A stretch of 64,000 nt of DNA from Gammaproteobacteria bacterium (GCA_021772985.1 JAJFKX010000014.1:78481-142480); one strand, 5' to 3'. Shown: positions 7,205-58,869, counted from the stretch's first letter. Numbers and translations are program-made. The notes: generated from the letters alone by a model not told the origin.

Positions 7205-7221
7205 CGGCATGATTATTGCAT
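7205..7221 (+). promoter_or_regulatory. Sigma-54 (-24/-12) type promoter for the exporter operon
   Basis: cGGCATGattaTTGCAt: GG at 7206-7207 and GC at 7218-7219, exactly 10 nt apart. 12 of 14 defined consensus positions of YTGGCACGrNNNTTGCW match. It sits 38 nt upstream of ATG 7259. An NtrC-type activator is encoded just downstream of the operon. Confidence 0.5.
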
Positions 7222-7258
7222 GTATAGCTTTGAATATGATTGAAAGCTGGTTGCCAAT

Positions 7259-8545: not shown

Positions 8546-8555
8546 GGCCCAGAAG

Positions 8556-10588: not shown

Positions 10589-10597
10589 GAGAGCGTT

Positions 10598-11812
10598 ATG
10601 GAATTTCGTCCCATATTAAGCGCGTTGATGCGCAACAAAGCCGGCGCTTTGCTGATTGCCCTGCAAATTGCAATTACTTTGGCGGTGGTTACCAACGCAC
10701 TGTATATCCTTAAACAGCGGCAAACACATATCAACAGGCCGACCGGCATCGAGGCTACCGCTGATGCATTTGTTATATATACCAGAGTATTTAGAAATGA
10801 CATCAATATCGAACAATTGGTTGATGATGACCTGTTAAAAATACGCGCTCTGGCGGATTTACAAGCAGTAACCCCGATTCAATCGGTGCCGGTCAGTGGC
10901 GGAGGCTGGGGAGAAGACTTCTATCTTAGCCAGGATCAATCATCCGACCAAAGTGTCGGCTTTGGGAATTTTATGGTTAATCAAGACGGGGTTGAGGCTT
11001 TGGGCCTGGACCTGATTGAAGGGCGTAATTTCAGCACCGAGGAAATCACCTTCAGAAGCCCGGTTGAAACCGTATACCCGAGAATTGTCTTAATCAGCAA
11101 ACCTCTGGCCAATGCTTTGTTTCCCGATGGCGATGCATTAGGGCAGCTGGTTTATGACGAGCTAAACAGCCCTCACCCTACCCGTATTATCGGCATTTAC
11201 GAAAATATGCCCAATGCCTGGCCAAATGCCACAATGTTCGAGAATTCAGCACTGATGCCACAAATATCAGCCAGTAATGATGTGCGTTACTGGATTCGCG
11301 CGAAACCAGGTCGGCGTGATCAGTTAATGACAGAGGTTGAACAGTTGCTGGGGCTGGATCGCAATCGAATAATTCTGGGTAACCGTACTTTTGAAGAGGT
11401 CAAGGCACGTACTTACCGTAACGATATTGCTATGGTTAAATTACTCAGCGGCGTGGTTGCATTGCTGACCATGGTAACCGCCATGGGCATCATCGGGCTG
11501 GCGTGGTTTAGCGTAACGCAGCGGCGCAAACAAATTGGCACTCGGCGGGCTCTGGGCGCACATAAAATGGATATTTTGCGCTATTTTATGATTGAAAACT
11601 GGCTGATCACCAGTGCCGGGCTGGCAATCGGCATCGTCTTGACTTTGGCTTTAAATTACTTTTTGGACACCAATTTCCAAACCGGTCGGTTGGTCTGGTA
11701 TTACATCCCTGTCGGCATGCTGTTCTTGTGGTTACTGGGCCAGTTGGCAGTACTTGCACCTGCACGTAAAGCTGCTAATACCGACCCGGCACTGGCTACC
11801 CGCAGTGTGTAA
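10598..11812 (+). CDS. Second FtsX/MacB-type ABC permease
   Basis: 404 aa with the same TM / periplasmic domain / 3-TM layout. Follows the first permease after 9 nt. Confidence 0.8.
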   Translation: MEFRPILSALMRNKAGALLIALQIAITLAVVTNALYILKQRQTHINRPTGIEATADAFVIYTRVFRNDINIEQLVDDDLLKIRALADLQAVTPIQSVPVSGGGWGEDFYLSQDQSSDQSVGFGNFMVNQDGVEALGLDLIEGRNFSTEEITFRSPVETVYPRIVLISKPLANALFPDGDALGQLVYDELNSPHPTRIIGIYENMPNAWPNATMFENSALMPQISASNDVRYWIRAKPGRRDQLMTEVEQLLGLDRNRIILGNRTFEEVKARTYRNDIAMVKLLSGVVALLTMVTAMGIIGLAWFSVTQRRKQIGTRRALGAHKMDILRYFMIENWLITSAGLAIGIVLTLALNYFLDTNFQTGRLVWYYIPVGMLFLWLLGQLAVLAPARKAANTDPALATRSV

Positions 11813-39570: not shown

Positions 39571-41298
39571 TTAAGCCAGCCTGAGGCGCTCACGAATTTC
39601 AGATAAGATTTCTTTGTAATTAATTTCATACACATGCCCGTCATATGAAGACGCCAGAAACTTCCGAACCCCTGAATCAAAACACAAGCAGGAAATACCC
39701 GATGTTGTTGGCCTGAGCACCATTTTCCACTCTCCTGAGTTGGTATTGTAGAGAGCTATTCTTCCATCATAGGCTCCGGTCGCCAGAATCGGCGTATTGA
39801 GTGCGGAAGCGACGCATTTTATAGAATGGGTATGCGGAGTCTGGATGACGCTTGCGTTAAAGCCTGCCCCCCACACTCTTAATGTCCGATCTCGACTGAC
39901 GCTGGCAAATCTGCCGTCATGAAGCGTGGCGGCGCCGTTGGCAATCAGCCCATGGGCTTTGGGTATCTGCCTCAGCAAAGTGAAATCCTGCAAGCGATGA
40001 AAAGCGCCCGCACCGGTTGCACAAACGGAAAACAATACCTTGTCATTGACCGCCAATCCTTTTATGGCATTGTCGTGAATTTGCACCTCTTTCACAAAAA
40101 GCAGCCGGTCTGACTCATAACGAAACAATAACCCTTCCCCGGTGTAAGTGCCGATAATAATCTGTGTTTTTCCATCACGGCAGAATTTTACGCCGCAATT
40201 TAACGGGGACCGGTGTCGATAGAGCACTTCACCTGTCAACGCGTTGAATAGCTCGCCACTTTGACCACCTGTAATCAATAAATCCGTGGTTTCCAACAAA
40301 AAATTGCACAGGCTTCCCATCTGCGCTAGCTCTTTACCTTCCACCAGCACCGAACCGGAATCTCCCACCATATAACGCCGCCCCCGGAATGTGGATACCG
40401 CGTTCAACCCATGGGTGGGTTCCCAATTTGAAAAGTTCCACGCTCTGGTTTGCCGGTTATACTCGCACCAGGTAGAGCCAAAGGTTCCAAAAACAATACG
40501 CTGTTCATTAACTATGGCAATGGATCGCAACCAGACTTCGTTCGGGCATTTCACCACCTCTACTTCTTTCAGTTCCCGGGTGTTAAGCCAATGCCATACT
40601 TTTATGTTGCAGTCGTAACTACTGCTGATTATTATTCCTGCTTTACTGCTGCAAACCATGGATTTGATGCCTGCCTGGTGCGCAGCCACGGCATGGATGA
40701 CTTTTCCGTGTTTGATGACAATAACTTTACCATCATCATTGCCGGCAAATACCGTGTCTCCAAGCATGCAGATTGTGTCGGTTTCCACTCCGTCAAAGGT
40801 AAATGTTCGAAGCAGCCTGCCGGTATCAATATCCCACACCCGAACCGTTCCATCGTCACCCGACGAATGCAGCTGTCTAAGTTCCATATTGAATTCCACA
40901 CACGTCACATCCGAGGTATGCCCCTCAAAAGTATGCAGCAGTGATCCATCAATTGAAAAAAGCCGCACCTGATGGTCTCGACAAGCAGTCGCAACATATC
41001 TTGATTGCTGATCCATCACCGCCATTTCCACATCGTCCAGATGGTGACAGTAGATGGTGACCAAACGCATCTCCGGGACTTTCCACAACCTGGCCAAATG
41101 ATCGCTGCCACAACTCAGCAGATATTGACCACAGCTGCTGAATCGTACCTTGTTGACCAAATGCTCATGGTAGCCGCGATACAGACTTTTGCGTGTCTGC
41201 ATATCCCACAGAATCACCTGATTGTCATACCCCGCAGTAGCAACCCATTGATTCTCCCAGGTATCGATCCCACTGATGGGTGAGGCATGCTTAATCAT
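39571..41298 (-). CDS. Stand-alone WD40 beta-propeller protein (~575 aa, probably a double propeller)
   Basis: Repeated WD signatures (NQVILWD, HLARLWK, GTVRVWD, CNIKVWH, RTLRVWG) and GH-type dipeptides (EGHTSDV). ATG 41298 is preferred over the track's TTG 41376. No signal peptide and no other domain seen. Confidence 0.8.
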   Translation of the reverse strand: MIKHASPISGIDTWENQWVATAGYDNQVILWDMQTRKSLYRGYHEHLVNKVRFSSCGQYLLSCGSDHLARLWKVPEMRLVTIYCHHLDDVEMAVMDQQSRYVATACRDHQVRLFSIDGSLLHTFEGHTSDVTCVEFNMELRQLHSSGDDGTVRVWDIDTGRLLRTFTFDGVETDTICMLGDTVFAGNDDGKVIVIKHGKVIHAVAAHQAGIKSMVCSSKAGIIISSSYDCNIKVWHWLNTRELKEVEVVKCPNEVWLRSIAIVNEQRIVFGTFGSTWCEYNRQTRAWNFSNWEPTHGLNAVSTFRGRRYMVGDSGSVLVEGKELAQMGSLCNFLLETTDLLITGGQSGELFNALTGEVLYRHRSPLNCGVKFCRDGKTQIIIGTYTGEGLLFRYESDRLLFVKEVQIHDNAIKGLAVNDKVLFSVCATGAGAFHRLQDFTLLRQIPKAHGLIANGAATLHDGRFASVSRDRTLRVWGAGFNASVIQTPHTHSIKCVASALNTPILATGAYDGRIALYNTNSGEWKMVLRPTTSGISCLCFDSGVRKFLASSYDGHVYEINYKEILSEIRERLRLA

Positions 41299-41631
41299 GG
41301 CGTAGTATGAGGTAAGGCAATTCGATATAGTGCGGAAATGATACTTCGCAAAAACTCTGGGAAAGCTTGGTCCCAAGTTGAATATTTTGCTGCAAATCCT
41401 TATTCACAATAAATCTTATCAGTCCCTGATGTTATTGGGCAGAACATAAACAGCAATGCAATCCTTGATCCTGTCTATTAGCAAACTACTCTTCAAGCGT
41501 GGCTCGCATATTCCAAACCATACCACTGCCAAATTATGTTCCTTTCCTAAGAGGTTATCACGCGTTCAATAGATGTTAAAGCCGGTAATAATATTTAACC
41601 AGGAACGCAGTACGCTCCTGTTATCCAGATA

Positions 41632-42760: not shown

Positions 42761-44611
42761 GTGAAAATCCAAAACCGCCTGCTCAGGATCGAATACCATG
42801 CTCAACATCAGGTGCTGATTGCATCTGATGTAAAAGGCAGAGTGCATAAATTTGATCAACAACTTAACCTGGTTCAATCATCGCCGGTTACTTCTTACGC
42901 GCATCCGGTAAATTCCATCTGCCTGACTGAAAAATATATATTTACCAAAGACCGCTTTGGGAATATCGGCAAATGGGGAATGGAGTCGCTGGAACCTCTG
43001 GACTTTTTTGACGGCAGGCATATTTGTGACAAGAGCAAATTATTCCCGGAGGAAAAACCTTCCTTAAGCCCCAACCGTGGCATCAGGGTATTTAACGGTA
43101 AGTTATTTACCAGCAACGCTTATAACCAGTTTGTTGTGCTGGATGAAGAAACCTTCGAAGTACTTGATATCCGTGACTCCCCCTCAAAAACATTCATTGA
43201 TTGTATCTGCACCGAACACCCGGATGTTCATGCAATGACGGACGTTAACGGCAAAATATTTATCGGCAATATTGAAACCAATGAGTGGCCGGTGGAACAA
43301 GTGGTGGATACCATGGTGGTGCATGGCATTGCCTACGACAAACGACACGATCGGTTCTGGACCACCCAGGACGGCGGCATTGGCGATGACCGGTTTGTAC
43401 GAACCGGCGTAACCGTTATTGAAAAAGATGGCAGCGGGTTTAAAGAGTTCAAAGTTTCAACTGAAGACAATGAATTTATTGCCTTTAGCCCTGATCACCG
43501 CACACTGTTTGTCGGCGGGTTTAATGGCACTATCAGCGTATTCGACAATACCGATAAACAATTCCGCCTCAAGAAAGTGCTTGGCCCGATGGGGTTTCAG
43601 ATCATTCACGGTGCAGTGGTGGATGAGGACCAGCTCTATGTGCTTTTACAAACCGGCGATGTGATCAGACTCAACGGTGATGGTGAGGAAGTGTGCCGGG
43701 CAGAACACAGCAATCTTTGTGTGTGGACGATGGAACCCCACCCCAAAGATGACAGCCTGCTTTACCTTGGTACCGATCAGGGCGTCAGTCTGATCAAATA
43801 CGGCAATGGTGAGTACGGTTCGATACAAATTGACCAAATCGCAAAACATGTTCACGGGTTTGGTGTAACCAAAGACGTGAAACCACTCCCGGATGGCTCC
43901 TACGTTTGTATTTCACGAAATGGCAATGTCATCAAGGCTGACGAACAAGGCTCCATTCAATGGTTCCGGCAGGTACTGGGAATACCACGCGGCATAGCCT
44001 TAAACAGAGATTATGATCGCTGCCTGGTTTCCACCGACGCAGGCACAGTTTGGGAACTGGATCTTGATGATGGCTGCGTGATCGATCAAATTGAAGTTGG
44101 TGCTCCCTCTTACGGCTGTATCTATACAGACGACGGGCAACGGGTCGTATCTGTAGACAAGCACTCACAAATTCGATTTTATCCGGCTGATTCCCAGCAA
44201 ATGCTGGGTGCAATAAAAGATTTTTCATACCGGATAAAACGAATGATCCGAGCGAGTAACGGTGGTATTTTTGTTACCGGCCCGGATGGCGTTTTTGAAC
44301 TGGATGTTGAAAATATGGCCATCAAGAAACAGTTTGGTGAACACCTGGTCAGCACTAAGGAAAATATGGTGCTAATTAACGGCTATGTTTATGCAGGTGG
44401 TTACGGCTACCAGATCGGTTCATACCGATACGAAACCGGACAAACTGTAGACCTGAAAGAAACCGAGCCCGACTTTACCAAGGCATTCGCCGCACGCCAG
44501 CAAAAAGATCAGCTGCCGATATTACTGGTAGGTGGACGTGGTGGCTTTATCAATGCTTACAAAATTATTGCCGGAATACCCAGCAAGGTTCGCGAGTTCT
44601 ATATAAGTTAA
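42761..44611 (+). CDS. 616-aa beta-propeller-like protein (WD40-like/YVTN-like repeats, divergent)
   Basis: Long ORF with a recurring ~40-45 aa beta-strand periodicity (..DGS..V..D.G.I...D..). GTG start without a clear SD. No signal peptide. Confidence 0.65.
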   Translation: MKIQNRLLRIEYHAQHQVLIASDVKGRVHKFDQQLNLVQSSPVTSYAHPVNSICLTEKYIFTKDRFGNIGKWGMESLEPLDFFDGRHICDKSKLFPEEKPSLSPNRGIRVFNGKLFTSNAYNQFVVLDEETFEVLDIRDSPSKTFIDCICTEHPDVHAMTDVNGKIFIGNIETNEWPVEQVVDTMVVHGIAYDKRHDRFWTTQDGGIGDDRFVRTGVTVIEKDGSGFKEFKVSTEDNEFIAFSPDHRTLFVGGFNGTISVFDNTDKQFRLKKVLGPMGFQIIHGAVVDEDQLYVLLQTGDVIRLNGDGEEVCRAEHSNLCVWTMEPHPKDDSLLYLGTDQGVSLIKYGNGEYGSIQIDQIAKHVHGFGVTKDVKPLPDGSYVCISRNGNVIKADEQGSIQWFRQVLGIPRGIALNRDYDRCLVSTDAGTVWELDLDDGCVIDQIEVGAPSYGCIYTDDGQRVVSVDKHSQIRFYPADSQQMLGAIKDFSYRIKRMIRASNGGIFVTGPDGVFELDVENMAIKKQFGEHLVSTKENMVLINGYVYAGGYGYQIGSYRYETGQTVDLKETEPDFTKAFAARQQKDQLPILLVGGRGGFINAYKIIAGIPSKVREFYIS

Positions 44612-44632
44612 GTTGCAAGGGAGTTTGCGTCG

Positions 44633-45259
44633 ATGAAGGTAACGCCGGAAGAGTATATCGCTGTGCTGCAGAATGCTTTTAATAAGCACTACCACGAAGG
44701 CAGTGATGTATGGAGCGACGATCCGGAAATGCGCGTGGTTCCATCGCTTATTCAAGGCCAACTCAAGTTACCAGCAACAACAATCGCACTGGATATAGGC
44801 TGCGGTATTGGCTGGGATACCGATTATTTCTCCAGGATTTACCAACAAGCGACAGGCATAGACCTGTATCAGCATGAAAACTGGGTAACACTTCAGAAAA
44901 AAAGATTAAATGTCGCTTTTTACCAAACCGGTTACTTTGAATTTGACCCTGGGCAATCTTTTGACCTGATTCTGGACAACGGTTGTTTTCATCATCAGCA
45001 TCCAGAACATTACCAAGCCTACCTGGACAAGGTAACAACCATGCTGGCCGCTGGAGGCTGGTATGCCATCTCAACCTTCAAAAACGATACAAAAACAAAA
45101 TACTGGGATCCAAATGGGAGGCTGCACCGTTATTTTACGGATGTTGAATTCAGTGAAACACTCGAACAGGCCAACCTAAAGGTTCATCATGAAATCGATA
45201 TCTATCGAGCAGTACATCAGGATTACTATCGTTTAAGCCTATGTCAGCCATTTGCATGA
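44633..45259 (+). CDS. Class I SAM-dependent methyltransferase
   Basis: Motif I ALDIGCGIGWD; post-motif FDLILDNGCFHH. AGGGAG SD. Starts 21 nt after the propeller gene. Confidence 0.8.
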   Translation: MKVTPEEYIAVLQNAFNKHYHEGSDVWSDDPEMRVVPSLIQGQLKLPATTIALDIGCGIGWDTDYFSRIYQQATGIDLYQHENWVTLQKKRLNVAFYQTGYFEFDPGQSFDLILDNGCFHHQHPEHYQAYLDKVTTMLAAGGWYAISTFKNDTKTKYWDPNGRLHRYFTDVEFSETLEQANLKVHHEIDIYRAVHQDYYRLSLCQPFA

Positions 45260-46083
45260 ACAGCCCGGAGAAAACGGAATCAGCTTTGCTCAAGCTGTTG
45301 CAGACTCTCAATCAGCAAATGGTGCCTGTTCCTGCAGGGGTTTTCAGCATGGGCTCCAGTCAGGCAGAGGTAGATCGGTGTGTCGAATTTTGGACAAGCA
45401 GACTGGTCGATAAAAAATTTACCGCTGCACAGTTCCGGCAATGGATTTTAAAGGAGTACCCATGCCACCCTGTGCAGTTGAATTCATTCTCATTAAGCCG
45501 GTTCCCAATCACCAACCAGCAATACCGTGATTACATTACCGCAACCGGTGCGGCTGCCCCGGAATCCATACAACGCAATAAACCACAAAATCACCCGGTA
45601 TGGGGTGTTTCTCTGGATGCGGTTCAGGGTTTTTTAGATTGGTTGAGTATAGCCTCAGGAAAGGTATTCCGCCTGCCCACCGAAGCCGAATGGGAATATG
45701 CCGCCAAAGGTCCGCAATCACTCGAGTACCCTTTTGGAGAAGAATTTGACTCTGCGAAATGTAATACCGTTGAAGCCGGAATCGGAGACACCACCCCGGT
45801 AACCGACTATGCCCGGTTCGCTTCAGGCTTCGACATTTGTGACCTTGCCGGTAATGTCGAGGAATGGACCAGCGATTGTTATTCCCCCTACCAAGGTGGG
45901 ACTCTGGTCAAAGATGATCTGGTAGATACGCTGGGAACAAACTACCCGATTACCCGCGGTGGCTCCTTCAAACGAGGCGGTGACCTGGCCCGCTCAGCCA
46001 GAAGGCACGGCCCCTACCCGGCCCCGGAATATAAATTTATTGGCTTTAGGGTGGCCATTTCGGCCATGGACACCCATAAATGA
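45256..46083 (+). CDS. FGE-sulfatase (SUMF1/EgtB/PvdO) fold protein lacking the catalytic Cys pair and lacking a DinB domain
   Basis: RLPTEAEWEYAAKG, AGNVEEWTSD, TRGGSF, IGFRVA motifs. ATG 45256 forms an ATGA overlap with the methyltransferase stop; the track's start at 45241 is also possible. Confidence 0.8.
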   Translation: MNSPEKTESALLKLLQTLNQQMVPVPAGVFSMGSSQAEVDRCVEFWTSRLVDKKFTAAQFRQWILKEYPCHPVQLNSFSLSRFPITNQQYRDYITATGAAAPESIQRNKPQNHPVWGVSLDAVQGFLDWLSIASGKVFRLPTEAEWEYAAKGPQSLEYPFGEEFDSAKCNTVEAGIGDTTPVTDYARFASGFDICDLAGNVEEWTSDCYSPYQGGTLVKDDLVDTLGTNYPITRGGSFKRGGDLARSARRHGPYPAPEYKFIGFRVAISAMDTHK

Positions 46084-46417
46084 CTCCAAATTAAGCGGCT
46101 TTAGTGAAAAATCATGACCACCCATAACCATTTTGTAGGAGCGATCAAGACCACGACCTGAGTTGGCTTTGAGGTTGGGTCGCGCCCAGGTGTGCTCCTA
46201 CACACCTGGATATGGACACCTAGTGCCACTCCAGACACCCTTAGCTCTACTACGTGACGATATGCATTTTGACTTGAAAGCTGCTGCAGTCTCGGCTTAC
46301 CTTCGCAGCAGCCGATGATCTTTTTAGAACCATGAAATAACCTATAATGGTTATCAGCTACCGCCAACAGGGTGCTAAGTAAACGATTGGCTAGCATTAA
46401 ACAGTTAGGGATCACCC

Positions 46418-46681
46418 ATGACCGAACCATCGAATTATCAGATCAACTATAGCCGGGCTTATCCTCTCAGCAGTTTCGCTGCATATCCAGAATGGCCTCA
46501 GCAGAAAACTGATGGTGCAGCCACTGATGTTGCATTTTTGCATTCGGATTATGTTGTCCGGCAAGGTACGGGACTGGATGACGAAATAATCTTTGCTGAT
46601 GCTTCTGAGAGCTGGCTGGTGTTTTGCCGTGATCAGCTGGGTTTTGATAAGCAAAAGGCAGAGGTGCTGGAAGACAGTTAA
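46418..46681 (+). CDS. 87-aa hypothetical protein upstream of the TIR gene
   Basis: ATG with AGGGA 8 nt upstream. I recognise no motif. Coding status is supported only by ORF length and position. Confidence 0.45.
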   Translation: MTEPSNYQINYSRAYPLSSFAAYPEWPQQKTDGAATDVAFLHSDYVVRQGTGLDDEIIFADASESWLVFCRDQLGFDKQKAEVLEDS

Positions 46682-46756
46682 TTTGAATAAGTAAGCTCTT
46701 TGATAATTTGGGGGTAAAAGTGGGCATTATTTTCATCAGCCACTCCAGTCAGAACA

Positions 46757-49381
46757 ATGACTGAAACATCTGAACGCTTAAAAGTCTTTGTCTCGTATTC
46801 ACGCGATGACCTTGAGTTCGCAGATCAGTTGGTCTTAGCGCTTGAAGATAAAGGTTTTGAGCCCATCATCGACCGGCACGATATCGATGCCGCCGAGAAG
46901 TGGAAAGACCGGCTCGCGGCGTTATTGTTTTCCTGTGATACGGTGGTTTTTGTGCTCAGCGAAGTCTCTGCTGCATCACCGGTTTGTCGCTGGGAAGTGG
47001 AAGAAGCCGAACGTCTGGGCAAGCGGATGATTCCAGTATTGCCGGCCGCAGTGGATGGAGTCAAACCGCCGCAACAGCTTGCTGAACTCAACTATATTCA
47101 TTTCTACACCAATCCCAATGTTCCGGGCTCCGGTTTTTATCATGGGGTTCAACGGCTCGAAAAAGCACTGAAAACCGACCTTGTGTGGTTGCGCCAGCAA
47201 ACCCGGCTAAGCGAGCAGGCGGCGCGCTGGACACAAACAAACTCGGACGATCTATTAATACGTGGAACCGAATTAGAAGCAGCAATCCAGTGGCGGGTAA
47301 GGCAACCAAAGGAAACCGTCATACAACCGCATGTCCTGGCCTATATTCAGGTCAGTGAAACAGAGGAACAACGCCGCAAAGCTGAAGCTGCTGCTGACCT
47401 TGAAGCGCGTGAGCAGGCGCTGACCAAAGCTGAAGCTGCTGAAAAACGGCGGCGGCGCGCATCTATCAGAGGCATGGTGATCGCTGCTATGCTTACGCTG
47501 ATCGCAATTAGCGGGATCATATACGCAACAAAACGTTCTCTTGACGCCAACGATCTGAATGCACAGCTGTTTGCAGCAGAGGCAAACCGACTCAGCAGCA
47601 CAGGGAGGTATATTAACGCTGCGTTGATGGCATTACTCGGCGATCTCACAGCTGAAACAGGACTGATTGAGCCTTTGCTTCGCCCAAATAGGAACTCTGC
47701 AACGCGAACAGCATTGGAACATGCTGTGACACATAACCTACAGATAGGGTCTGTGGATACAAATAGCATCACTAGCACCATCGTCTTGCATCCCGATGGC
47801 ACACGTTTCCTGACAGTGTCTCATGACTGGACCGCCAAACTCTGGCAAATCGGTGAAGATACGCCGCTGCAGATATTCAACGGGCATGATGGCCCGGTCT
47901 ACTCCGTCGTCTTCCACTCCGATGGCGAACGTTTCTTGACAGGGTCTTCGGACAAGACCGCCAAACTCTGGCAGATCTGTGGAGGCACGCCGCTACAGAC
48001 CTTCTACGGGCATGATGTCTCGGTCTACTCCGTCGCCTTCCATCCCGATGGCGAACGTATCCTGACAGGTTCTTGGGACAAGACCGCCAAACTCTGGCGG
48101 ATCGGTGAAGACACGCCGCTAGAGACCTTCAATGGGCATGATGGCCCGGTCAACTCCGTCGCCTTCCATTCCGATGGTGAACGTCTCCTGTCAGGGTCTC
48201 ATGACAAGACCGCCAAACTCTGGCGGATCGGTGAAGATATGCCGCTGCAGACCTTCAACGTGCATGATGACTACGTCTTCTCCGTCGCCTTCCATCCCGA
48301 TGGCGAAGGTTTCCTGACAGGTTCTCGGGACAAGACCGCCAAACTCTGGCAGATCGGTGGAGGCACGCCGCTACAGACCTTCAACGGGCATGATGGCGAC
48401 GTCAACTCCGTCGCCTTCCATCCTGACGGCGAGCATATACTGACAGGTTCTGCTGACAATACCGCCAAACTCTGGCGGATCGGTGAAGACACGCCTCTAC
48501 AGACCTTCTACGGACATGATGTCTCGGTCTACTCCGTCGCCTTCCATCCCGATGGCGAGCGTTTCCTGACAGGGTCTCATGACAAGACCGCCAAACTCTG
48601 GCGGATCGGTGAAGACATGCCGCTGCAGACCTTCAACGGGCATGATTTCTCGGTCTTATCCGTCGCCTTCCATCCCGATGGCGAACGTTTCCTGACAGGG
48701 TCTCATGACAAGACCGCCAAACTCTGGCGGATCGGTGAAGACACGCCGCTGCAGACCTTCAACGTGCATGATGGCTCGGTCTTCTCCGTCGCCTTCCATC
48801 CCGATGGCGAACATTTCCTGATAAGTCCTGGGATCAATACCGCCAAACTCTGGCGGATCGGTGAAGACACGCCGCTGCAGACCTTTTACGGGCATGATAG
48901 CCGGGTCCAATCCGTCGCCTTCCATCCCGATGGTGAACGTTTCCTGACAGGTTCTTGGGACGATACCGCCAAACTCTGGCAGATCGGTGAAGACACGCCA
49001 CTGCAGACCTTCAACGGGCATGATAGCTTGGTCCACTCCGTCGCCTTCCACCCCGATGGAGAACGTATCCTGACAGGTTCTTGGGACAAGACCGCCAAAC
49101 TCTGGCGGATCGGTGAAGACATGCCGCTGCAGACCTTCGATGGGCATGATGAGGGGATCGACTCCGTCGCCTTCCATCCCGATGGCAAACATATCCTGAC
49201 CGGTTCTGACAATACCGCCAAACTCTGGCCCATTCACGCCTTCCTGTTTCTCTCCCCAGAAGAACAAGTCATCGAAGCCTGCAAAAAATTACGCGAGATC
49301 GGCAAATCCGCCTTCACCGAGGCCGACCGCCAACGCTACCCAATATTACGTAACCAGTCTCTCACGCCTTGTATGAAGTAA
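46757..49381 (+). CDS. TIR domain / helical linker / single TM helix / 12-blade WD40 repeat protein
   Basis: TIR_2-like KVFVSYSRDD...SPVCRWEVEEAERLG (aa 8-~135). LLIRGTELEAAIQW linker. EEQRRKAEAAADLEAREQALTKAEAAEKRRRRASIR, then hydrophobic MVIAAMLTLIAISGIIYA (aa 239-257). Then GHDxxVxSVAFHPDGERFLTGSxDKTAKLWxIGEDTPLQTF twelve times. Confidence 0.9.
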   Translation: MTETSERLKVFVSYSRDDLEFADQLVLALEDKGFEPIIDRHDIDAAEKWKDRLAALLFSCDTVVFVLSEVSAASPVCRWEVEEAERLGKRMIPVLPAAVDGVKPPQQLAELNYIHFYTNPNVPGSGFYHGVQRLEKALKTDLVWLRQQTRLSEQAARWTQTNSDDLLIRGTELEAAIQWRVRQPKETVIQPHVLAYIQVSETEEQRRKAEAAADLEAREQALTKAEAAEKRRRRASIRGMVIAAMLTLIAISGIIYATKRSLDANDLNAQLFAAEANRLSSTGRYINAALMALLGDLTAETGLIEPLLRPNRNSATRTALEHAVTHNLQIGSVDTNSITSTIVLHPDGTRFLTVSHDWTAKLWQIGEDTPLQIFNGHDGPVYSVVFHSDGERFLTGSSDKTAKLWQICGGTPLQTFYGHDVSVYSVAFHPDGERILTGSWDKTAKLWRIGEDTPLETFNGHDGPVNSVAFHSDGERLLSGSHDKTAKLWRIGEDMPLQTFNVHDDYVFSVAFHPDGEGFLTGSRDKTAKLWQIGGGTPLQTFNGHDGDVNSVAFHPDGEHILTGSADNTAKLWRIGEDTPLQTFYGHDVSVYSVAFHPDGERFLTGSHDKTAKLWRIGEDMPLQTFNGHDFSVLSVAFHPDGERFLTGSHDKTAKLWRIGEDTPLQTFNVHDGSVFSVAFHPDGEHFLISPGINTAKLWRIGEDTPLQTFYGHDSRVQSVAFHPDGERFLTGSWDDTAKLWQIGEDTPLQTFNGHDSLVHSVAFHPDGERILTGSWDKTAKLWRIGEDMPLQTFDGHDEGIDSVAFHPDGKHILTGSDNTAKLWPIHAFLFLSPEEQVIEACKKLREIGKSAFTEADRQRYPILRNQSLTPCMK
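47756..49240 (+). repeat. Twelve in-frame, head-to-tail 126-bp (42-codon) WD40 coding repeats with very high nucleotide identity
   Basis: Unit starts fall at 47756, 47882, 48008, 48134, 48260, 48386, 48512, 48638, 48764, 48890, 49016 and 49142; I checked the GGG/GTG-CAT-GAT register at several. Units 48512 and 48638 differ at about 7 of 126 nt by hand alignment. Confidence 0.95.
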
Positions 49382-49598
49382 ATTGATTCGCTTGCAAGCC
49401 TGATATAGGTCAGCTTGCATAACCAATTACTTTAAAAAGCAACAAACAAATATTAACGCATCCACCTTGTTCTCACTCTATAATAATTTTGGTGCATAAA
49501 TACTGTGATTGTTTTTTTCGTGATATATGGAATATGTATTTTGCACTTGGAAATAAAGCCTTATTACATGGAGTAACTATTTACAAGGAGTAACTAAT

Positions 49599-50387
49599 AT
49601 GAGGACTAAATTTATTTTGCTGTTGATTCTTCTGTCATTAAGCTGCGCGAATCAGACAATGGCAGCTGGTACCATCACAGTTGTTTTACTGAATGACACT
49701 TTGTTCATCGATGGTGATGCTCAAGACAATACCGTGATTGTGGAAGTCGATTCGCTGCTTAACCAGATCACGGTTTCTTCGCCGGACACAATCAGCGGCA
49801 TAGCTACAGTATTCGGAACTACAGAAGTCGATACAGTGGACATACTGATGGGCAGTGGGAACGACCATGTTGTGGTTGCCGCACCATCTGTTTTAACACC
49901 ACCATTCGAAGACTTAATCATCGATGGTGGGAAAAACTCGGATGAAATTGTAATCGGTGCATTGGTGGTCGAATCAATTGATATCTTTCCCGAAAACGGC
50001 AATGACCACATCGAACTAATCAATTGTGCTGCGACATCTCTGCGTGTTCGCCAATCAAACGGCGATGATAACCTGGGTGTTTTGAGTTGCGATTTTGATG
50101 ATGTCAATATTGATCTTGGCACCGATAAAGACTGTCTGTATATTGATGATTCAAGTTTTGACGGGCCGTTTGATGCCAATACCAACGAGCAAAAAGACAT
50201 CACCGTTGCCATAGATAATCAATTCACTGGCGCCACGACAAGCTTCAAAGGTGGCGGCGACAACGATAAAATCTATCTAAGAGGTAATACCTTTACCACC
50301 CAGTTAACGGTCAACTCGGAAGTTGAAGATCAGGGAACAATACCAGCACCGACCTGGAGCCAGGATTGCATAGATTTTTTCGAATAA
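49599..50387 (+). CDS. Secreted or lipoprotein-like acidic protein with degenerate G-(N/D)-D-x-(I/V) repeats (beta-roll/beta-helix-like)
   Basis: Signal MRTKFILLLILLSLSCANQTMAAG. Recurring GSGNDHVVV, ENGNDHIEL, SNGDDNLGV, GGGDNDKIYL. SD AAGGAG. Confidence 0.6.
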   Translation: MRTKFILLLILLSLSCANQTMAAGTITVVLLNDTLFIDGDAQDNTVIVEVDSLLNQITVSSPDTISGIATVFGTTEVDTVDILMGSGNDHVVVAAPSVLTPPFEDLIIDGGKNSDEIVIGALVVESIDIFPENGNDHIELINCAATSLRVRQSNGDDNLGVLSCDFDDVNIDLGTDKDCLYIDDSSFDGPFDANTNEQKDITVAIDNQFTGATTSFKGGGDNDKIYLRGNTFTTQLTVNSEVEDQGTIPAPTWSQDCIDFFE

Positions 50388-53584: not shown

Positions 53585-55387
53585 CTAATAACCCAGTTCA
53601 TTAAGCAAACCATCCAATCGCTCTGCCAATTCTGTGGTTGACTGATCAGCGTCGCTGTTAACAGTCGACAAGGAATCTTCAGCGGTAACGCCTGCCGCAA
53701 ACGGGTACCCGGGCAAACCAATCCGATGATAGACAGCTTTCGGATGGATGACCTTCCAATCGAATCCCGCTCCATCCTTTAGCCACGCCCCGACAACAGT
53801 ATCCGTCTTTGCATCCAGACTTTCTAAACGTTGCATAGATTCAAGCTGCATGTTTTCCGCCTCAATAAGTTTTTCCAGGGCCTGTGCCAGCTCAACCCGT
53901 GACTTGCCTGCCACCGCGACCCGCAATGGCCCATCAGTGCGGCTAAGATTAGTCGAATAACAAATATCACCGACATCTTCTGATGTACTCAGCAAAAAAT
54001 CCCGGTAAATATGAATCAGTTTATCCAGCGAATCCGAACTCCAGGCCGATAAGGTCAATACATGCTCTGCATGATCAACCGACTTGCTGGTCATCATTGA
54101 AACGTCCGGTGCTTCACTCAAAACCACATGCGCATTTGCCCCGCCAAAGCCGAATGCGCTCACCCCGGCAATCCGTTCATTCGACGCCGGCCAGTCGGTT
54201 AACTGCTGCACCAGTTCCAGCTTAACCCCATCGCGGGCAAAAAATGGATTGGGCTGCCGTACACCAACAGTGGCTGGTATCTGAGCATGCTTTAAAGCCA
54301 ACGCCACCTTGATTAACCCCGCCATTCCCGACGCTGCTTCCAGATGCCCGAGATTACCCTTAACACTGCCAATCAGGCAGGGGTTTTCCGCTTCCCGGTG
54401 ATTGCCGACGGCATTCTGCAACGCTTTCAATTCCAGCGTATCAGCCAACACCTGGGCCGCCGCCATGCTTTCGATATAGGTACTGGAATTTGGTGCCAGT
54501 CCGGCGTTGGCATAAGCACGCCTGATAACCTCAGCCTGCAATTTCGGATTGGGCGCAGTCAAACCGTTGGACAAACCGTTATGGTTGATCACGCTGCCCC
54601 ATAACACTGCATAAATTCGGTAACCCTGCTCCAGAGCATCTTCCAGGCGACACAACAACACCGCACCAGCACCCTCACCACGCAAATAACCGTCAGCTCC
54701 GGCATCAAATGGCCGAGAGACATCACCGGTCGATACCATTCCGGCCGCCTGCAGTGCACTGCTGACCTCCGGCAACAACATCACCGCTGAGGCTGCACAC
54801 AAGGCAAAATCGCATTCACTAAAGACCAGGCTCTGACGCGCACAATGCAATGCCACCAATGCCGATGAACATGCGGTATCCAACGCAATGCTTGGCCCGG
54901 TGGCATTCAGCCAATGCGAAACCCGATTGGCGGTCAGCCCGCTGGCTGTGCCGACCGTGCTATACAGATCAGCCGCGCCTGAAGCCCAGCTTAAAATCGA
55001 ATAATCATGCGAAGACACCCCGGTAAACACACCGGTAATGGCGGTTGCCAGTTCCTGTTTGGACAGACAGGCGTCTTCGATAGCCATCGCCGCTGTCTGC
55101 AACACCAGCCGCTGTTGCGGGTCCATCGCCCGTGCTTCACGTGGGGTAATCGAAAAATAATCACAATCAAAAGCGAATACATCATCCAGGAACCCACCCC
55201 GCCAATCCGGCTGCCCGGAAGGCTGAGGCCCGAATACGCGATCGTGCAAATCCAAACGCCCGGCCGGTGCGATACCGATGGCACTGCGACCTGAGCTGAG
55301 CAGATCCCAATAGGCTGCTGGAGAATCCGCCCCTGGAAAACGGCAGCCGATACCAATCATCGCAATGGGCTGCGTCGGGTTTGTCAT
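53585..55387 (-). CDS. Free-standing ketosynthase with the active-site Cys but a degenerate HGTGT motif (KS0-like), plus a ~170-aa C-terminal extension
   Basis: IAMIGIGCRFPGA, DTACSSALVALHCA (Cys at aa 190 of the track ORF), GNLGHLEAASG all present. YIESMAAAQVLADTLE (nt 54452-54472 encode ESMAAAQ) replaces Y(V/I)EAHGTGTxxGDPxE. ATG 55387 is preferred over the 55438 start. Confidence 0.85.
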   Translation of the reverse strand: MTNPTQPIAMIGIGCRFPGADSPAAYWDLLSSGRSAIGIAPAGRLDLHDRVFGPQPSGQPDWRGGFLDDVFAFDCDYFSITPREARAMDPQQRLVLQTAAMAIEDACLSKQELATAITGVFTGVSSHDYSILSWASGAADLYSTVGTASGLTANRVSHWLNATGPSIALDTACSSALVALHCARQSLVFSECDFALCAASAVMLLPEVSSALQAAGMVSTGDVSRPFDAGADGYLRGEGAGAVLLCRLEDALEQGYRIYAVLWGSVINHNGLSNGLTAPNPKLQAEVIRRAYANAGLAPNSSTYIESMAAAQVLADTLELKALQNAVGNHREAENPCLIGSVKGNLGHLEAASGMAGLIKVALALKHAQIPATVGVRQPNPFFARDGVKLELVQQLTDWPASNERIAGVSAFGFGGANAHVVLSEAPDVSMMTSKSVDHAEHVLTLSAWSSDSLDKLIHIYRDFLLSTSEDVGDICYSTNLSRTDGPLRVAVAGKSRVELAQALEKLIEAENMQLESMQRLESLDAKTDTVVGAWLKDGAGFDWKVIHPKAVYHRIGLPGYPFAAGVTAEDSLSTVNSDADQSTTELAERLDGLLNELGY

Positions 55388-55527
55388 TGGCTGTTGTTTC
55401 CCACTGCGTGATTCCTGTATGCGCCTGCCAGACAGCAACCACTGATTCTGAATGGAAAGTGTTTTTGTAGACTGTTCATGTTGTCACTTATCACTTGCAA
55501 CGGCCTGGTAAGAACATACGGACCCAC

Positions 55528-56757
55528 TCATATCGGTTGTGAAAAACGCATCGGCAAGTGCGCAAAACCACGCAGGTGCACACCACGCTCCCGAACACTT
55601 TGATCAGTCAACAGCACCGGGCAGCTCGAACCGGGTTTGACCAAACGCTGTAACACAGTACGCGCCGCCAACCGTGCGATATAGGCACCCAGGCAATAAT
55701 GCGGACCCGCACCGAACGGCAGATTGCCGGTCATGTTGCGCTCAAAATCAATTTGATCCGGGTTCACAAACACGGCTGGATCACGCAAACCGGCACCTAA
55801 AAACAAATGCATCCGCTCTCCCGCTTTGATGGTTTGCTCAGCCAGCACAGTATCCTGTTTCGCAACCCGAACAATTAACTGTACCGGAGTATCGTAACGC
55901 GCCAGCTCATCCACTGCTTTATCCAGCAAAGCATGCTCATTACTCAAACAATCCCAGGCCGCTGGAGCCATGGAGATCGCCAGCAGGCTATTGCCGATCA
56001 AATTCTTGGTGGTATCACGGCCGACACTCAACAACATGGTGACAAACGCCAGCAACTGTTCAGCCGGCCACACCAGCTCTGCCTGATCATTTGCCAGCAA
56101 CCGCGCCAAAAAGCCTTCGCTGACCAAATGCCGGTCAGATTGCGTAATCACCTGTTCCAGCAACAACTCCAGCTTAGCCAGCACCTGCCCAAGCTCGGCA
56201 TAACGTTGTGCCGATATGGGTTGTTGAAATACCGAAAAAATTTTGCTGGCCCAATGCGATACCTGTTGATCATCAACATTTTTGATACCCAGAAAGCGCA
56301 ACATCAGCCGGGTGGTCATAGGCACCGCAATATCGGTCATCACGTCCAGCTCTGTCTGGCCCCGAAAATCTGCCAGTAACTGCTCCAGCAAATTATCCGC
56401 TTCGGCTTGCCACTGTTCTACCTGTTGTCTGGAAAACGCCCGCGCTACACCGCTGCGCATCCGGGTATGCACAGGAGGGTCGACAAAAAATAACCAGCAA
56501 CGGACATTTTTCGATAGCCTGGCACGATCATCATGACCTTGTTCCGACCCGGAATGGAGAATGGTATTCGGCACATTATCGACGCTAAAGTCTTTGCTGC
56601 TTAGTACCGTGCGAATATCGGTATAACGGGTCAATATCCAATCGTTGCCACGTAAACCCAGGTGCGGCATCAGCGGCGAATCAGATCGCATCTGCTGATA
56701 ATAGGGATACGGATTATCGAGAAAATCGGCGCTGAAAAAATTAATCCCGCTGGGCAT
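55528..56757 (-). CDS. Cytochrome P450
   Basis: Haem-Cys loop FGAGPHYCLG; 409 aa. Confidence 0.9.
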   Translation of the reverse strand: MPSGINFFSADFLDNPYPYYQQMRSDSPLMPHLGLRGNDWILTRYTDIRTVLSSKDFSVDNVPNTILHSGSEQGHDDRARLSKNVRCWLFFVDPPVHTRMRSGVARAFSRQQVEQWQAEADNLLEQLLADFRGQTELDVMTDIAVPMTTRLMLRFLGIKNVDDQQVSHWASKIFSVFQQPISAQRYAELGQVLAKLELLLEQVITQSDRHLVSEGFLARLLANDQAELVWPAEQLLAFVTMLLSVGRDTTKNLIGNSLLAISMAPAAWDCLSNEHALLDKAVDELARYDTPVQLIVRVAKQDTVLAEQTIKAGERMHLFLGAGLRDPAVFVNPDQIDFERNMTGNLPFGAGPHYCLGAYIARLAARTVLQRLVKPGSSCPVLLTDQSVRERGVHLRGFAHLPMRFSQPI

Positions 56758-56801
56758 CGCAACTACTCGTTAATTATCGCTGCAACCAGGCTGACTATTT
56801 C

Positions 56802-58823
56802 TCAATCGCCATTGCTCACAACCAATCCTGACACATACCGGGAGGCTTCCTCAATACTCGGATATTCCCAGAACAAAGTGTCATCCAGCGACAATCGCAA
56901 AACCTGCCCCAATAACACCGTTATTTCCAATGCATCCGCAGAAGATATACCCAATTGTGCAAACGACGCGGTGATCGAAAGTCCGGACTCAGCTTGGCCG
57001 GTTTTACCTGCAATGCGTGCCCGCAACCAGGCACTGACCTGGGCTTCGGATGGCTGTTTCGGTAAACCGGCATCCGTCTCCGGCGCTTCCGAACCCTGCC
57101 CGCTATTGAGTTCCGAACGATACAATACTTCCACATCCGGCCTGGCAAATAACTCACTGCATTGCCAGTGCTGAACCTTGCCGCTGGTGGTGCGTGGTAT
57201 GGTGCCCGTCTGGCATAACACTACCAGGCTGACCGGTACTTCAATGTGTTTTGCCAGAATTGCCCGGATGTTATCTGCTACCGCCTGAGCATCCACTTCC
57301 CGGCGACGCTCACGACGCACTTCTGCAACCACTGCCAGGCACTCACCTCCTTCCAGCTGCAACGGAAATGCAGTAATGCTGCCAGCCAGCAGATCGGCAT
57401 CACAACCGGTCAGCCAGCCTTCTATATCTTCGGCAAACAGGTTCTCGCCACTGACGATAATCATATCCTTCAAGCGACCACGTAAAACCAGTTGACCCTT
57501 AATCCACACACCAATATCACCGGTGCGCAAGAACGGCCCCTCCCCTGAATTCAGATAAGCCTGAAATACCTGCTCGGTGACTTCCGGGTCACAATAATAA
57601 CCAGCAGCCACACATGCACCGGCAATCCATATCTCACCCTGGCTTCCGTCAGCACAGCGGGTACCGGCTTCCGGATCGACCACGATCACCTGTTGGCCTC
57701 CCAACGCACCACCACAGGGTAATGTCTCTTGTGATTGCGGCGGCGCATCCTGTTGTACAACTGACAATTGCCGATAAGCAGATTGCTGCGAAACAACCCC
57801 ACGGTCTACTCCGGTAACAATCAGGGTGCCTTCAGCCAGTCCGTAGCAGGGATAAAAAGCACTGGGGTCAAAACCGGCAGGGGCAAACTTTTTGGCAAAC
57901 CGCCGCATGGTTCCCGGTCTGACCGGTTCGGCACCGACATAGGCAATCCGCCAGTTGGATAAATCCAGGTCACCCAGCTCATCACCACTGCGTTGCACGC
58001 ACATTTCATAGGCAAAGTTCGGGCCGCCGCTGGTGGTCGCTTTAAATGTTGAGATGGTCTCCAGCCAGATGCGCGGATTGCGCAAAAACTGTTCAGGCGA
58101 CATCAAAATACAAGGTCGCTGCATGTAAAAAGGGTTCAACATATTTCCGATCAAACCCATGTCATGAAACAACGGCAACCAGCCCACCACCACTGCATCA
58201 TGGGTATGCCGGAAACCCTGTTCGATAAGCAATTGATTTTCGATAATATTGCGGTGAGTAACCACCACCCCTTTGGGGTTGCCGGTGGAACCGGAGGTAA
58301 ACTGCAACAAAGCCGGCGACTCGGGTGTAACCGCAGCTGCCTGCCAGGCCTGCGGTTCTGCAGGAATATCTTCCAGCACTACCCAGGTGACATTCGGTAA
58401 ACATGCCTCCAGGTCAATTCGGCGTTTCAGTTTTGCTAAAAAACCTCTTTCGGTGATCACTGTCCGGCTAGCGCATTTATCCAGAATCCGCTGCAAACCC
58501 TGCACCTGGGTGAGGTTGCGTGGTGCTGATACCGGCACCGCCGGCAGATTGGCATACTGACAGGCAAAAAATGCCTTCACAAAGCCACTGCCGGTCGGCA
58601 GCAACAATACTATCGGTGCTGATGTTAACTGCCGATGTTGCAGATAAGCGGCAATCCGGCGGGCTTCGCTGTCCACTTGCGCGTAACTGAGCTGATCTTC
58701 ACCGGATTCCGCATAGGGGAACCGATAAGCCGTTTGCTCAGCTGCCGCATCAGCACGCCGGCCGGCCAGTTCAACCAGCGTACCCGGAGTCCATACTTCC
58801 TTGTTGTGTTGTTGTACTTCCAT
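56802..58823 (-). CDS. Fatty acyl-AMP ligase (FAAL) fused to a carrier protein
   Basis: Adenylation cores FTSGSTGNPKGVVVTHRNI and GDIGVWIKGQLVLRGRLKDMIIVSGENL. C-terminal carrier FAQLGISSADALE. Confidence 0.9.
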   Translation of the reverse strand: MEVQQHNKEVWTPGTLVELAGRRADAAAEQTAYRFPYAESGEDQLSYAQVDSEARRIAAYLQHRQLTSAPIVLLLPTGSGFVKAFFACQYANLPAVPVSAPRNLTQVQGLQRILDKCASRTVITERGFLAKLKRRIDLEACLPNVTWVVLEDIPAEPQAWQAAAVTPESPALLQFTSGSTGNPKGVVVTHRNIIENQLLIEQGFRHTHDAVVVGWLPLFHDMGLIGNMLNPFYMQRPCILMSPEQFLRNPRIWLETISTFKATTSGGPNFAYEMCVQRSGDELGDLDLSNWRIAYVGAEPVRPGTMRRFAKKFAPAGFDPSAFYPCYGLAEGTLIVTGVDRGVVSQQSAYRQLSVVQQDAPPQSQETLPCGGALGGQQVIVVDPEAGTRCADGSQGEIWIAGACVAAGYYCDPEVTEQVFQAYLNSGEGPFLRTGDIGVWIKGQLVLRGRLKDMIIVSGENLFAEDIEGWLTGCDADLLAGSITAFPLQLEGGECLAVVAEVRRERRREVDAQAVADNIRAILAKHIEVPVSLVVLCQTGTIPRTTSGKVQHWQCSELFARPDVEVLYRSELNSGQGSEAPETDAGLPKQPSEAQVSAWLRARIAGKTGQAESGLSITASFAQLGISSADALEITVLLGQVLRLSLDDTLFWEYPSIEEASRYVSGLVVSNGD

Positions 58824-58869
58824 AGTAATTAACCTTTCTTTGTTGTCTCCATGACACCTACATCATTGT

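Follow-up and report, generated by a model that had tools for sequence, protein, structure and literature searches.

The window analysed here is a stretch of 64,000 nucleotides (nt) from a Gammaproteobacteria bacterium (GCA_021772985.1 JAJFKX010000014.1:78481-142480), which carries a gene for an 874-residue protein in which an N-terminal TIR domain is joined, through a helical linker and a predicted transmembrane (TM) helix, to an array of WD40 repeats. This protein is best explained, with a probability of about 0.55, as a single-polypeptide, single-pass receptor-effector of the inner membrane with its N-terminus inside and its C-terminus outside (N-in/C-out), which would be clustered by a ligand and would then cleave NAD+. 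An earlier sequence-only reading had proposed a periplasmic sensor that drives TIR clustering across the membrane without an NTPase switch. As far as computation goes, this interpretation is supported, the parts that we infer being membrane topology, NADase activity, ligand, and activation by clustering. Support beyond that reading is provided by a relative ending in an M23/LytM domain and by hypervariable positions in the WD40 repeats. The parts of the gene, given in window coordinates with residue numbers in amino acids (aa), are as follows.

46757..49381, plus strand: complete TIR-WD40 gene, 874 aa plus stop, from the list of open reading frames (ORFs), with an N-terminus that aligns with the N-termini of relatives
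46781..47131, plus strand: TIR domain, aa 9-125, predicted cytoplasmic, from Pfam, AlphaFold (predicted local distance difference test, pLDDT, >90) and Foldseek
46994..46996, plus strand: codon of Glu80, candidate catalytic glutamate in the motif S74-x-x-C77-x-W79-E80, from family alignments
47135..47371, plus strand: conserved helical post-TIR domain, aa 127-205, from conservation and helices with pLDDT >90
47372..47473, plus strand: Ala/Glu/Arg-rich helix ending in RRRRASIRG, aa 206-239, coiled coil, from the translation and the DSSP assignment of both models
47474..47530, plus strand: single predicted TM helix, aa 240-258, from hydropathy, charge bias and family conservation
47531..47776, plus strand: juxtamembrane helical region, aa 259-340, predicted periplasmic, with helices to aa 281 and then at 285-294 and 314-330
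47777..49231, plus strand: 12 WD40 repeats, aa 341-825, a recently amplified 126-nt unit, from Pfam, Tandem Repeats Finder and unit comparison
49232..49378, plus strand: C-terminal helical tail, aa 826-874, with conserved Cys842 (nt 49280-49282) and Cys872 (nt 49370-49372)

The 874-aa ORF described by the sequence-only reading is present, while its start at 46418 had to be corrected, belonging as it does to a separate 87-aa ORF upstream; the TIR-WD40 gene itself starts at 46757.

TIR domain and candidate catalytic glutamate

The TIR domain is recognized by profile hidden Markov model, structure prediction, and structure comparison alike. Pfam TIR_2 (PF13676) matches aa 10-119 with an E-value of 4.7e-22 (79.2 bits against a cut-off of 28), and the AlphaFold model of aa 1-338 has a pLDDT of 91. 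Foldseek aligns this model with the TIR domains of SPARTA TIR-APAZ, MyD88, SARM1, RPS4, and TIR-STING (E 1e-5 to 1e-3), and TIR structures alone are found among the best 50 matches listed for it. Both the Pfam score and the flavodoxin-like fold thus place the domain among TIR domains, as had been claimed.

Glu80 had been put forward as the candidate catalytic residue, to be checked by alignment; its position is correct, and the alignments bear the proposal out. Three family alignments, of 51, 82, and 22 members, show no variation at Ser74, Cys77, and Glu80. A search of the PDB with the full family alignment was swamped by WD40 matches and was redone with a TIR-only alignment, for which TLR15, TLR2, and MyD88 are the best sequence matches. 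With this TIR-only profile, C77 and E80 align with the Cys and Glu of 'SEWCKYEL' in TLR2, at the alpha-C position, and Glu80 is also aligned with the alpha-C Glu of TLR15, the residue in this column being Gln in MyD88. The motif 'S-x-W-C-x-x-E-L' is the alpha-C motif of plant and Toll-like receptor (TLR) TIRs, and its Glu is catalytic in plants. Judged by motif, we take the alpha-C position of Glu80 to be equivalent to that of the catalytic residue of SARM1 (E642) and plant TIRs. The protein therefore possesses what is required, at the level of sequence, of a catalytic (NADase/cyclase) TIR, and the invariance of the Glu suggests that the TIRs of this family are enzymatic rather than scaffolds.

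A helical linker in place of an NTPase

The TIR domain is followed by a helical domain that is conserved in the family despite matching no Pfam family. The 82-sequence alignment has no exceptions at L138 and W144 and a conservation of at least 90% at W179 and P184, two residues that do not vary at all in the 51-sequence alignment. Its helices, H127-139, H142-161, and H170-181, are predicted with pLDDT >90 in the model of aa 1-338. According to DSSP, a single predicted helix then extends from aa 191 to 281 in both AlphaFold models (aa 1-338 and full length), running unbroken through the hydrophobic segment.

The lack of a STAND/NACHT module, as noted by the sequence-only reading, is upheld by several observations: no Walker A motif ([AG]xxxxGK[ST]) is found in the 874-aa protein, Pfam gives TIR families only in aa 1-338 and hence no NTPase domain, and the about 210 residues of aa 127-340, TM helix included, are all-helical in the AlphaFold model. 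Given that STAND/NLR-like proteins (NACHT, NB-ARC, Avs, bNACHT) are built around a central P-loop NTPase, which is missing here, the protein is not a STAND protein.

Membrane topology

The segment MVIAAMLTLIAISGIIYAT at aa 240-258 has a mean Kyte-Doolittle hydropathy of 2.19 and a summed value of -0.87 on the Hessa scale. The 19-residue segment of the sequence-only reading is thus present, at the coordinates given there; one further stretch exceeds the hydropathy threshold, aa 53-71, which is a buried β-strand of the TIR domain. Lys and Arg number 6 in the 15 residues before the segment versus 2 in the 15 residues after it. This positive-inside bias, also claimed earlier, is strong and family-wide. 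The comparison covers 201 representatives that begin with the TIR domain and extend far enough to contain the helix. A hydrophobic helix (Kyte-Doolittle mean ≥1.6) is present in 176 of them (88%), its median distance from the TIR start being 240 residues (5th-95th percentile 229-256), and it is the presence and position of the helix, not its sequence, that are conserved. The mean number of Lys and Arg in the 15 flanking residues is 4.76 on the N side versus 2.41 on the C side (Wilcoxon p 8e-28), the N side exceeding the C side in 156 of the 176 helix-bearing relatives and the reverse being true in 2. With one hydrophobic helix of about 20 residues and a positively charged cytoplasmic flank, the protein is predicted from sequence to be of type II (N-in/C-out). 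The host is Gram-negative and has a periplasm, as indicated by its genes for a TonB-dependent receptor, an RND adaptor, and a ShyC-like protein (the ShyC-like match being below cut-off). It is quite likely, on the predicted features, that the TIR domain is cytoplasmic and the WD40 part periplasmic. The juxtamembrane region that would emerge first on the periplasmic side is weakly conserved among WD40-bearing relatives.

The domain content of relatives points in the same direction, above all that of one protein of Agrobacterium tumefaciens.

5977-8907 of locus L013, plasmid pAtCG920: gene of WP_174012738.1, an M23-ending TIR-TM-WD40 relative

WP_174012738.1 (977 aa) has the same TIR domain and linker, a helix at aa 235-253, and a WD40-like propeller, which is then followed by a Peptidase_M23 domain (E 4.5e-21). 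M23/LytM domains act on peptidoglycan or regulate enzymes that do, and this relative thereby supports a periplasmic location for the part after the helix, including the C-terminus. Its M23 domain probably represents a degenerate form of LytM, and such forms, too, are periplasmic. Likewise, Sel1 and SH3_3 domains, which follow the helix in other relatives, are typical of exported, wall-associated proteins. The gene of WP_174012738.1 is flanked by IS66 and IS701 transposases, and pAtCG920 is a conjugative plasmid.

A different arrangement would leave the WD40 part inside the cell, either with the helix as a membrane tether or oligomerisation element between two cytoplasmic domains, or with the protein as a soluble TIR-WD40 sensor that works without an NTPase. 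Of the bacterial WD40 proteins of the highly repetitive kind that have been characterised, most, including WRAP (2ymu, the best structural match of the present protein), do belong to cytoplasmic STAND proteins (PMC9218822), the confidence of the AlphaFold model dips at aa 232-241, and the segments of the caspase-bearing relatives are weakly hydrophobic. This arrangement is nevertheless quite improbable: a segment of 19 residues with such a mean hydropathy, flanked by RRRR, would have its flanks on opposite sides if it spans the membrane, the position of the helix is conserved in the large majority of relatives together with a strong charge bias, and an M23/LytM domain fused behind the propeller would make little sense in the cytoplasm.

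A recently amplified WD40 array with hypervariable positions

The WD40 part is confirmed by profile, structure prediction, and Foldseek. PF00400 matches it in 11 stretches (E 1e-138), and 'AKLW' occurs 12 times at a spacing of 42 residues. The array is made up of one degenerate repeat, ten full units, one 41-residue unit, and a closing strand; Tandem Repeats Finder reports it at 47781-49229 with a period of 126, 11.5 copies, and 86% matches. Full units share 80-93% identity in DNA, and the median protein identity of the ten full units is 76% (range 62-90%). Since highly repetitive, WRAP-like propellers are those with a median blade identity above 60% (PMC9218822), the array, with units of about 42 residues, belongs to this class.

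The full-length AlphaFold model, with a mean pLDDT of 85 and the confidence dip mentioned above, is laid out as TIR domain, helices 127-181, helix 191-281, helices to about 328, strands 341-825, and helical tail. Its best PDB match in Foldseek is 2ymu_A, the 'highly repetitive propeller' of Nostoc (43% identity), and the 7-bladed designer propeller 7big_A superposes on it with a TM-score of 0.93. It follows from this superposition that the model contains at least one closed 7-bladed ring, which would leave five repeats over. Of the '12-blade' sensor described by the sequence-only reading, the 12 repeats stand (one degenerate plus eleven), and they probably do not form a single 12-bladed ring. 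Repeat numbers also vary among relatives, detectable repeats ranging from 10 or 11 up to 14 in P0188 (986 aa), with 16 WD40 matches in a relative from Tolypothrix. This range fits the continuum of 7 to 14 blades described for such arrays, in which disrupted propellers are common and intermediate blade numbers frequent (PMC9218822).

Variation between the units is concentrated at positions 21, 22, and 24 (GHD-x-x-V-x) and 40 (GS-x-DK). By the Nei-Gojobori method, the ratio of nonsynonymous to synonymous substitution rates (dN/dS) in the ten full units is 3.6 at these four codons versus 0.41 at the other 38, with dS of about 0.2, a contrast that is descriptive and carries no test, the four columns having been picked after inspection of the data. 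We take these positions to lie at the beginning of strand a and immediately before the conserved Asp, in both cases on the top, ligand-binding face of the propeller. The same pattern of hypervariability is known from fungal HET-E/NWD repeats and cyanobacterial WRAP propellers.

The array is followed by a tail in which Cys842 and Cys872 are the sole invariant columns of an 18-sequence alignment. Exactly two Cys are present in the last 90 aa of 54 of the 71 long relatives, and Cys density is 1.9% in the tail versus 0.22% in the rest of the post-TM region. A disulfide is suggested by this pair, to which little weight is attached. When a profile of the tail was searched for signal-peptide or non-TIR proteins, none of the 98 candidates was significant.

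It has to be considered whether the 12 repeats result from a recent deletion or an assembly collapse, leaving a non-functional protein. Family members of about 1,000 aa are common, the 14 repeats of P0188 and the 16 WD40 matches of the Tolypothrix relative exceed the number found here, unit 8 ends aberrantly ('LISPGIN'), and unit 11 is one residue short. In two of the six relatives' neighbourhoods, moreover, the WD40 part is split into a second ORF, which suggests frequent frameshifts, decay, or assembly problems in relatives' arrays, in line with the disrupted propellers cited above. Decay or collapse of the present gene is, however, hardly probable, as its reading frame is open over 2,622 nt with TIR, helix, and tail intact, its units differ by 7-20%, which makes collapse less likely, and intermediate blade numbers are, as stated, nothing unusual. 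The places concerned are 9719-10909 of locus L005 and 6094-6729 and 1865-2590 of locus L008; the second ORF overlaps the first or is adjacent to it, and one of the loci has a second TIR-WD40 fragment nearby.

A large family with interchangeable C-terminal domains

The TIR-WD40 protein is not a one-off, although a look-up of its exact 874-aa sequence gave no record. A search with aa 1-338 returned 298 proteins (best identity 58%), and HMMER, run exhaustively with aa 1-260 on 1.84 billion representatives, gave 13,985 matches at E ≤1e-3, 5,981 at E ≤1e-10, and 1,136 at E ≤1e-30, the last figure counting clusters at 50% identity and being a lower bound. Many of the top matches begin with the TIR domain and have a length of 950-1,050 aa. 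The family, which is large and modular, is defined by three features, all of which the present protein has: an N-terminal TIR containing S-x-x-C-x-W-E, a helical domain in which Trp residues are conserved, and a TM helix that lies some 240 aa beyond the start of the TIR. Within it, the TIR-linker-TM module is constant and the C-terminal domains are interchangeable, those found after the helix being WD40, Sel1, FGE-sulfatase, SH3_3, trypsin-like, and caspase domains. Members occur in Alphaproteobacteria (Hyphomonadaceae, Candidatus Viadribacter, Ponticaulis, Agrobacterium), Betaproteobacteria, Thermoanaerobaculia, Cyanobacteria, and Bacteroidota, and are named only 'TIR domain-containing protein' or 'WD40 repeat protein' in the sources sampled. 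No description or test of a bacterial TIR-TM-WD40 protein was found in the literature searched, which is not proof of absence.

That relatives might be fragments of larger STAND genes, a possibility raised by the sequence-only reading against itself, is not what is observed: they begin at the TIR domain, and six neighbourhoods contain no NTPase partner. A search with a linker profile for effectors other than TIR, with an apparent reach of about 1.75 times the query length, returned only fragments of TIR-linker genes of at most 160 aa, and tblastn of linker plus TM against plasmids returned two already known TIR proteins only. In P0139 (621 aa), which has no helix where the family usually has one, the TIR-linker module is fused to PAS, HisKA, and HATPase_c and therefore also occurs in a cytoplasmic setting that resembles a two-component system. 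In Tolypothrix sp. PCC 7712 (5992-9204 of locus L014, on a mobilizable plasmid of 31 kb), the TIR-TM protein with 16 highly repetitive WD40 matches ends in a two-Cys tail, 'GCAWLHDYL...LSVCQ', and its gene lies directly 3' of a small gene with an adenylate/guanylate cyclase domain.

The trypsin-like and caspase domains that follow the helix in some relatives count in favour of another mode of activation with the same topology, namely regulated proteolysis, in which an invader or stress proteases would damage or cleave the ectodomain, intramembrane cleavage would come next, and the freed TIR-helical module would self-assemble and consume NAD+. Such a principle has been put forward for TirC, an amoebal TIR protein tethered to the membrane (PMC13142454), and the long helix together with the conserved helical domain could drive self-association once freed. 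Proteolytic release is nonetheless very improbable, since none of the loci seen has a linked gene for a site-1 or site-2 protease, and hypervariable WD40 positions of the binding type argue for recognition of a specific ligand.

Genomic context

A scan of the genome collection with a single N-terminal sequence identified four loci, and the survey of gene neighbourhoods, called for by the sequence-only reading, covers the loci of six relatives. These differ from one another and have no gene in common; neither a conserved partner gene nor a STAND NTPase was found across the six, and the system looks like a single-gene one. Within the window, the TIR-WD40 gene is preceded by two further features on the same strand.

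42761-46083, plus strand: co-directional upstream trio of a 616-aa propeller, a 208-aa S-adenosylmethionine (SAM) methyltransferase and a 280-aa FGE-sulfatase-domain protein
46418..46681, plus strand: 87-aa ORF, closed by stop codons before the TIR gene

The 616-aa protein is a weak β-propeller (PQQ_2/BamB-like, below cut-off), the SAM methyltransferase has a weak PADLOC match to mad2 (54 bits), and the FGE-sulfatase-domain protein has no DinB domain, signal peptide, or TM helix. The trio was rejected as part of the system, for it contains no signal peptides, has no defence match beyond the weak mad2 one, and is not conserved beside relatives. FGE-sulfatase domains also occur as ectodomains in the TIR-TM family, and no link of the trio to the TIR gene was found. 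A gap of 673 nt separates trio and TIR gene and holds the 87-aa ORF, which was likewise rejected, as it matches nothing in Pfam, NCBIfam, or PADLOC and tblastn reveals no counterpart of it in the related loci. At 46186-46209, about 100 nt after the FGE-sulfatase gene, lies a perfect 9-bp inverted repeat, CCAGGTGTG / CACACCTGG, with a 6-nt loop; it is followed by no T-run and does not figure among the terminators called. On the strand of the TIR-WD40 gene, neither a sigma-70 promoter nor a terminator could be identified convincingly, and Rfam gives zero family matches in 45900-49800.

Downstream are two secreted hypothetical proteins, a beta-lactamase-family lipoprotein, and a polyketide/lipopeptide-type cluster (53585-63915, minus strand) with a ketosynthase with a CurL-like C-terminus, a cytochrome P450, a fatty acyl-AMP ligase, and a 1,681-aa ORF. 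A second WD40 protein is encoded at 39571-41376 on the minus strand; it is non-repetitive, 600 aa long, with a TTG start and no hydrophobic segment, and at the DNA level its gene does not resemble the repeats of the TIR gene. Except for the weak mad2 match, no recognised defence genes are present near the TIR gene in the window. The TIR-WD40 gene has 54% GC, with GC at third codon positions (GC3) of 0.60 versus 0.44-0.54 in neighbouring genes, and the closest relatives of its protein are alphaproteobacterial; given the gammaproteobacterial host, raised GC3 and relatives together are a mild hint of horizontal acquisition.

The neighbourhoods of relatives are in favour of a role outside defence. 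The architecture would then be that of a receptor for envelope signalling or cell-cell recognition, whose periplasmic WD40 part binds an envelope protein of self or kin or a peptidoglycan-associated partner, and whose TIR is a scaffold or makes an NAD-derived messenger for envelope stress, development, or kin discrimination. Relatives are located among housekeeping or transport genes rather than in defence islands, and there is no PADLOC system match; Sel1, SH3_3, and degenerate LytM ectodomains are typical of cell-wall-associated proteins, and one relative couples the TIR-linker module to a PAS-histidine-kinase module. A role of this kind is nevertheless rather unlikely. The invariant Glu suggests enzymes and not scaffolds, and hypervariable positions, varying repeat numbers, and split genes fit an arms race better than a fixed self ligand, although all three would also fit kin recognition.

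Proposed mechanism

The reading of the protein as a ligand-clustered, NAD+-cleaving receptor implies the following course of events. The WD40 surface would bind some variable protein of foreign origin that has entered the periplasm, for which phage tail and ejection proteins, bacteriocins, and secreted effectors are examples. Binding would cluster the receptors or re-register them via the continuous helix, whereupon the cytoplasmic TIR domains would assemble into an ordered oligomer forming TIR active sites. Glu80-dependent cleavage of NAD+ would then result in NAD+ depletion or signal production, and the cell would be arrested or killed before the invader completes its cycle. Given the lack of a partner gene, NAD+ depletion would be the simplest output, and a signal for an unlinked effector may be produced instead. 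There are precedents for the central steps: ordered TIR assembly creates active sites in TIR-STING, SARM1, SPARTA, and Cat1 (PMC9402430, PMC13434031), activation of TIRs by the assembly of filaments has been described (PMC9402430), and phages are sensed at the level of the envelope by Kiwa, Zorya, and SNIPE (PMC13434031).

It should be noted that a number of points weigh against this reading. Topology was called from hydropathy and charge bias together with the domains present in relatives. With regard to the last of these, the M23 domain of WP_174012738.1 lacks the usual catalytic histidines by eye and belongs to one protein, and a few family members are helix-less with a cytoplasmic-type PAS-HisKA-HATPase, so that the TIR-linker module is not always membrane-bound. 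The Cys pair is weak evidence, as two-Cys tails are found on cyanobacterial WD40 proteins thought to be cytoplasmic. Twelve repeats do not give two complete 7-bladed rings, and the choice of hypervariable columns after inspection is compounded by the likelihood of gene conversion among repeats, which complicates dN/dS. Finally, the PADLOC and NCBIfam TIR matches are all sub-threshold, no recognisable defence genes surround the relatives in the six loci, and no relatives were found in phage genomes.

A broader form of the proposal is tentative, and we would sooner bet against it than for it. It holds that proteins of this kind are widespread bacterial transmembrane pattern-recognition receptors, in which a hypervariable periplasmic ectodomain, WD40 here and Sel1, FGE-sulfatase-like, or others in relatives, directly switches a cytoplasmic TIR NADase by way of one membrane helix. 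Invader proteins might then be recognised before or during genome entry, with neither NTPase nor partner, by what would be a TLR counterpart of inverted topology.

Comparison with known systems

STAND/NLR-like conflict proteins, including those of the Nostoc WRAP operon and fungal HET-E/NWD, likewise combine TIR or caspase effectors with repetitive WD40 sensors. As in WRAP, HET-E, and NWD, the WD40 units are recently amplified, vary at few positions, and are unstable in number (PMC9218822). Unlike them, the present protein has no NTPase, carries a TM helix between effector and repeats, and has a sensor predicted to be periplasmic, not cytoplasmic. With the TIR NADases SARM1, TIR-STING, SPARTA TIR-APAZ, and Cat1, it has in common the TIR fold and the alpha-C Glu; these proteins respond to cytoplasmic triggers (NMN/NAD+, cyclic nucleotides, and guide-target duplexes), whereas its own input is predicted to come from across the membrane. 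Similarity to ThsB of Thoeris is weak and restricted to the TIR (PADLOC ThsB E 4e-6; NCBIfam ThcB4 46.5 bits versus a cut-off of 220). Thoeris is recognised by ThsB beside ThsA or another effector, but neither is encoded adjacent to the gene, and ThsB lacks both TM helix and WD40; the protein is accordingly not a Thoeris component.

The predicted layout, with a cytoplasmic N-terminal output, one TM helix, and an extracytoplasmic propeller or repeat sensor, and the inferred direction of signalling are shared with PkwA-type kinase-WD40 proteins, the Ser/Thr kinase PknD with its NHL propeller, ECF57, and metacaspase-TM-X proteins, the output being a TIR here. The PknD propeller is extracellular, and ECF57 has a TM helix. 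The WD40 domain of PkwA is among the PDB sequence matches of the family alignment, metacaspase-'iTMHo'-domain architectures have been catalogued (PMC3501461), ECF57 sigma factors with WD40 extensions have been reported (PMC8999054), and effector-TM-extracellular-domain themes have been described in conflict systems (PMC7159879, PMC8195603). Kiwa KwaA, Zorya ZorAB, and SNIPE are located in the inner membrane and are proposed to detect phage entry and activate a cytoplasmic effector (PMC13434031), as is proposed for the present protein. There is, however, no kinship in sequence or domains, these systems being multi-protein or nuclease-based and none of them having a TIR or a hypervariable repeat ectodomain.

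What is new is a coupling: a known TIR effector and a diversifying WD40 sensor appear here to be connected via a membrane helix instead of an NTPase. To our knowledge, known bacterial TIR systems sense infection in the cytoplasm, through phage proteins, cyclic nucleotides, or guide-target duplexes, and known repeat-based sensors of the TIR-WD40 type have a STAND NTPase as the switch. If the proposal is true, bacteria could survey the periplasm with specific, diversifying receptors, and TIR activation would need just induced proximity across the membrane, the principle of animal TLR signalling. Because the family is large, modular, single-gene, and generically named in the sources sampled, it is tractable with one construct, and ectodomain swaps could reveal the ligand of each member.

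With TLRs themselves, the proposed logic is alike in that TIR proximity would be induced by ligand. TLRs have leucine-rich repeats, a type I TM segment, and a C-terminal TIR. In the present protein, this order is reversed, with an N-terminal TIR in type II orientation and a WD40 ectodomain in place of leucine-rich repeats, and its TIR is likelier an enzyme than an adaptor platform. The resemblance to TLRs is thus a convergence of layout, without a shared ancestral architecture.

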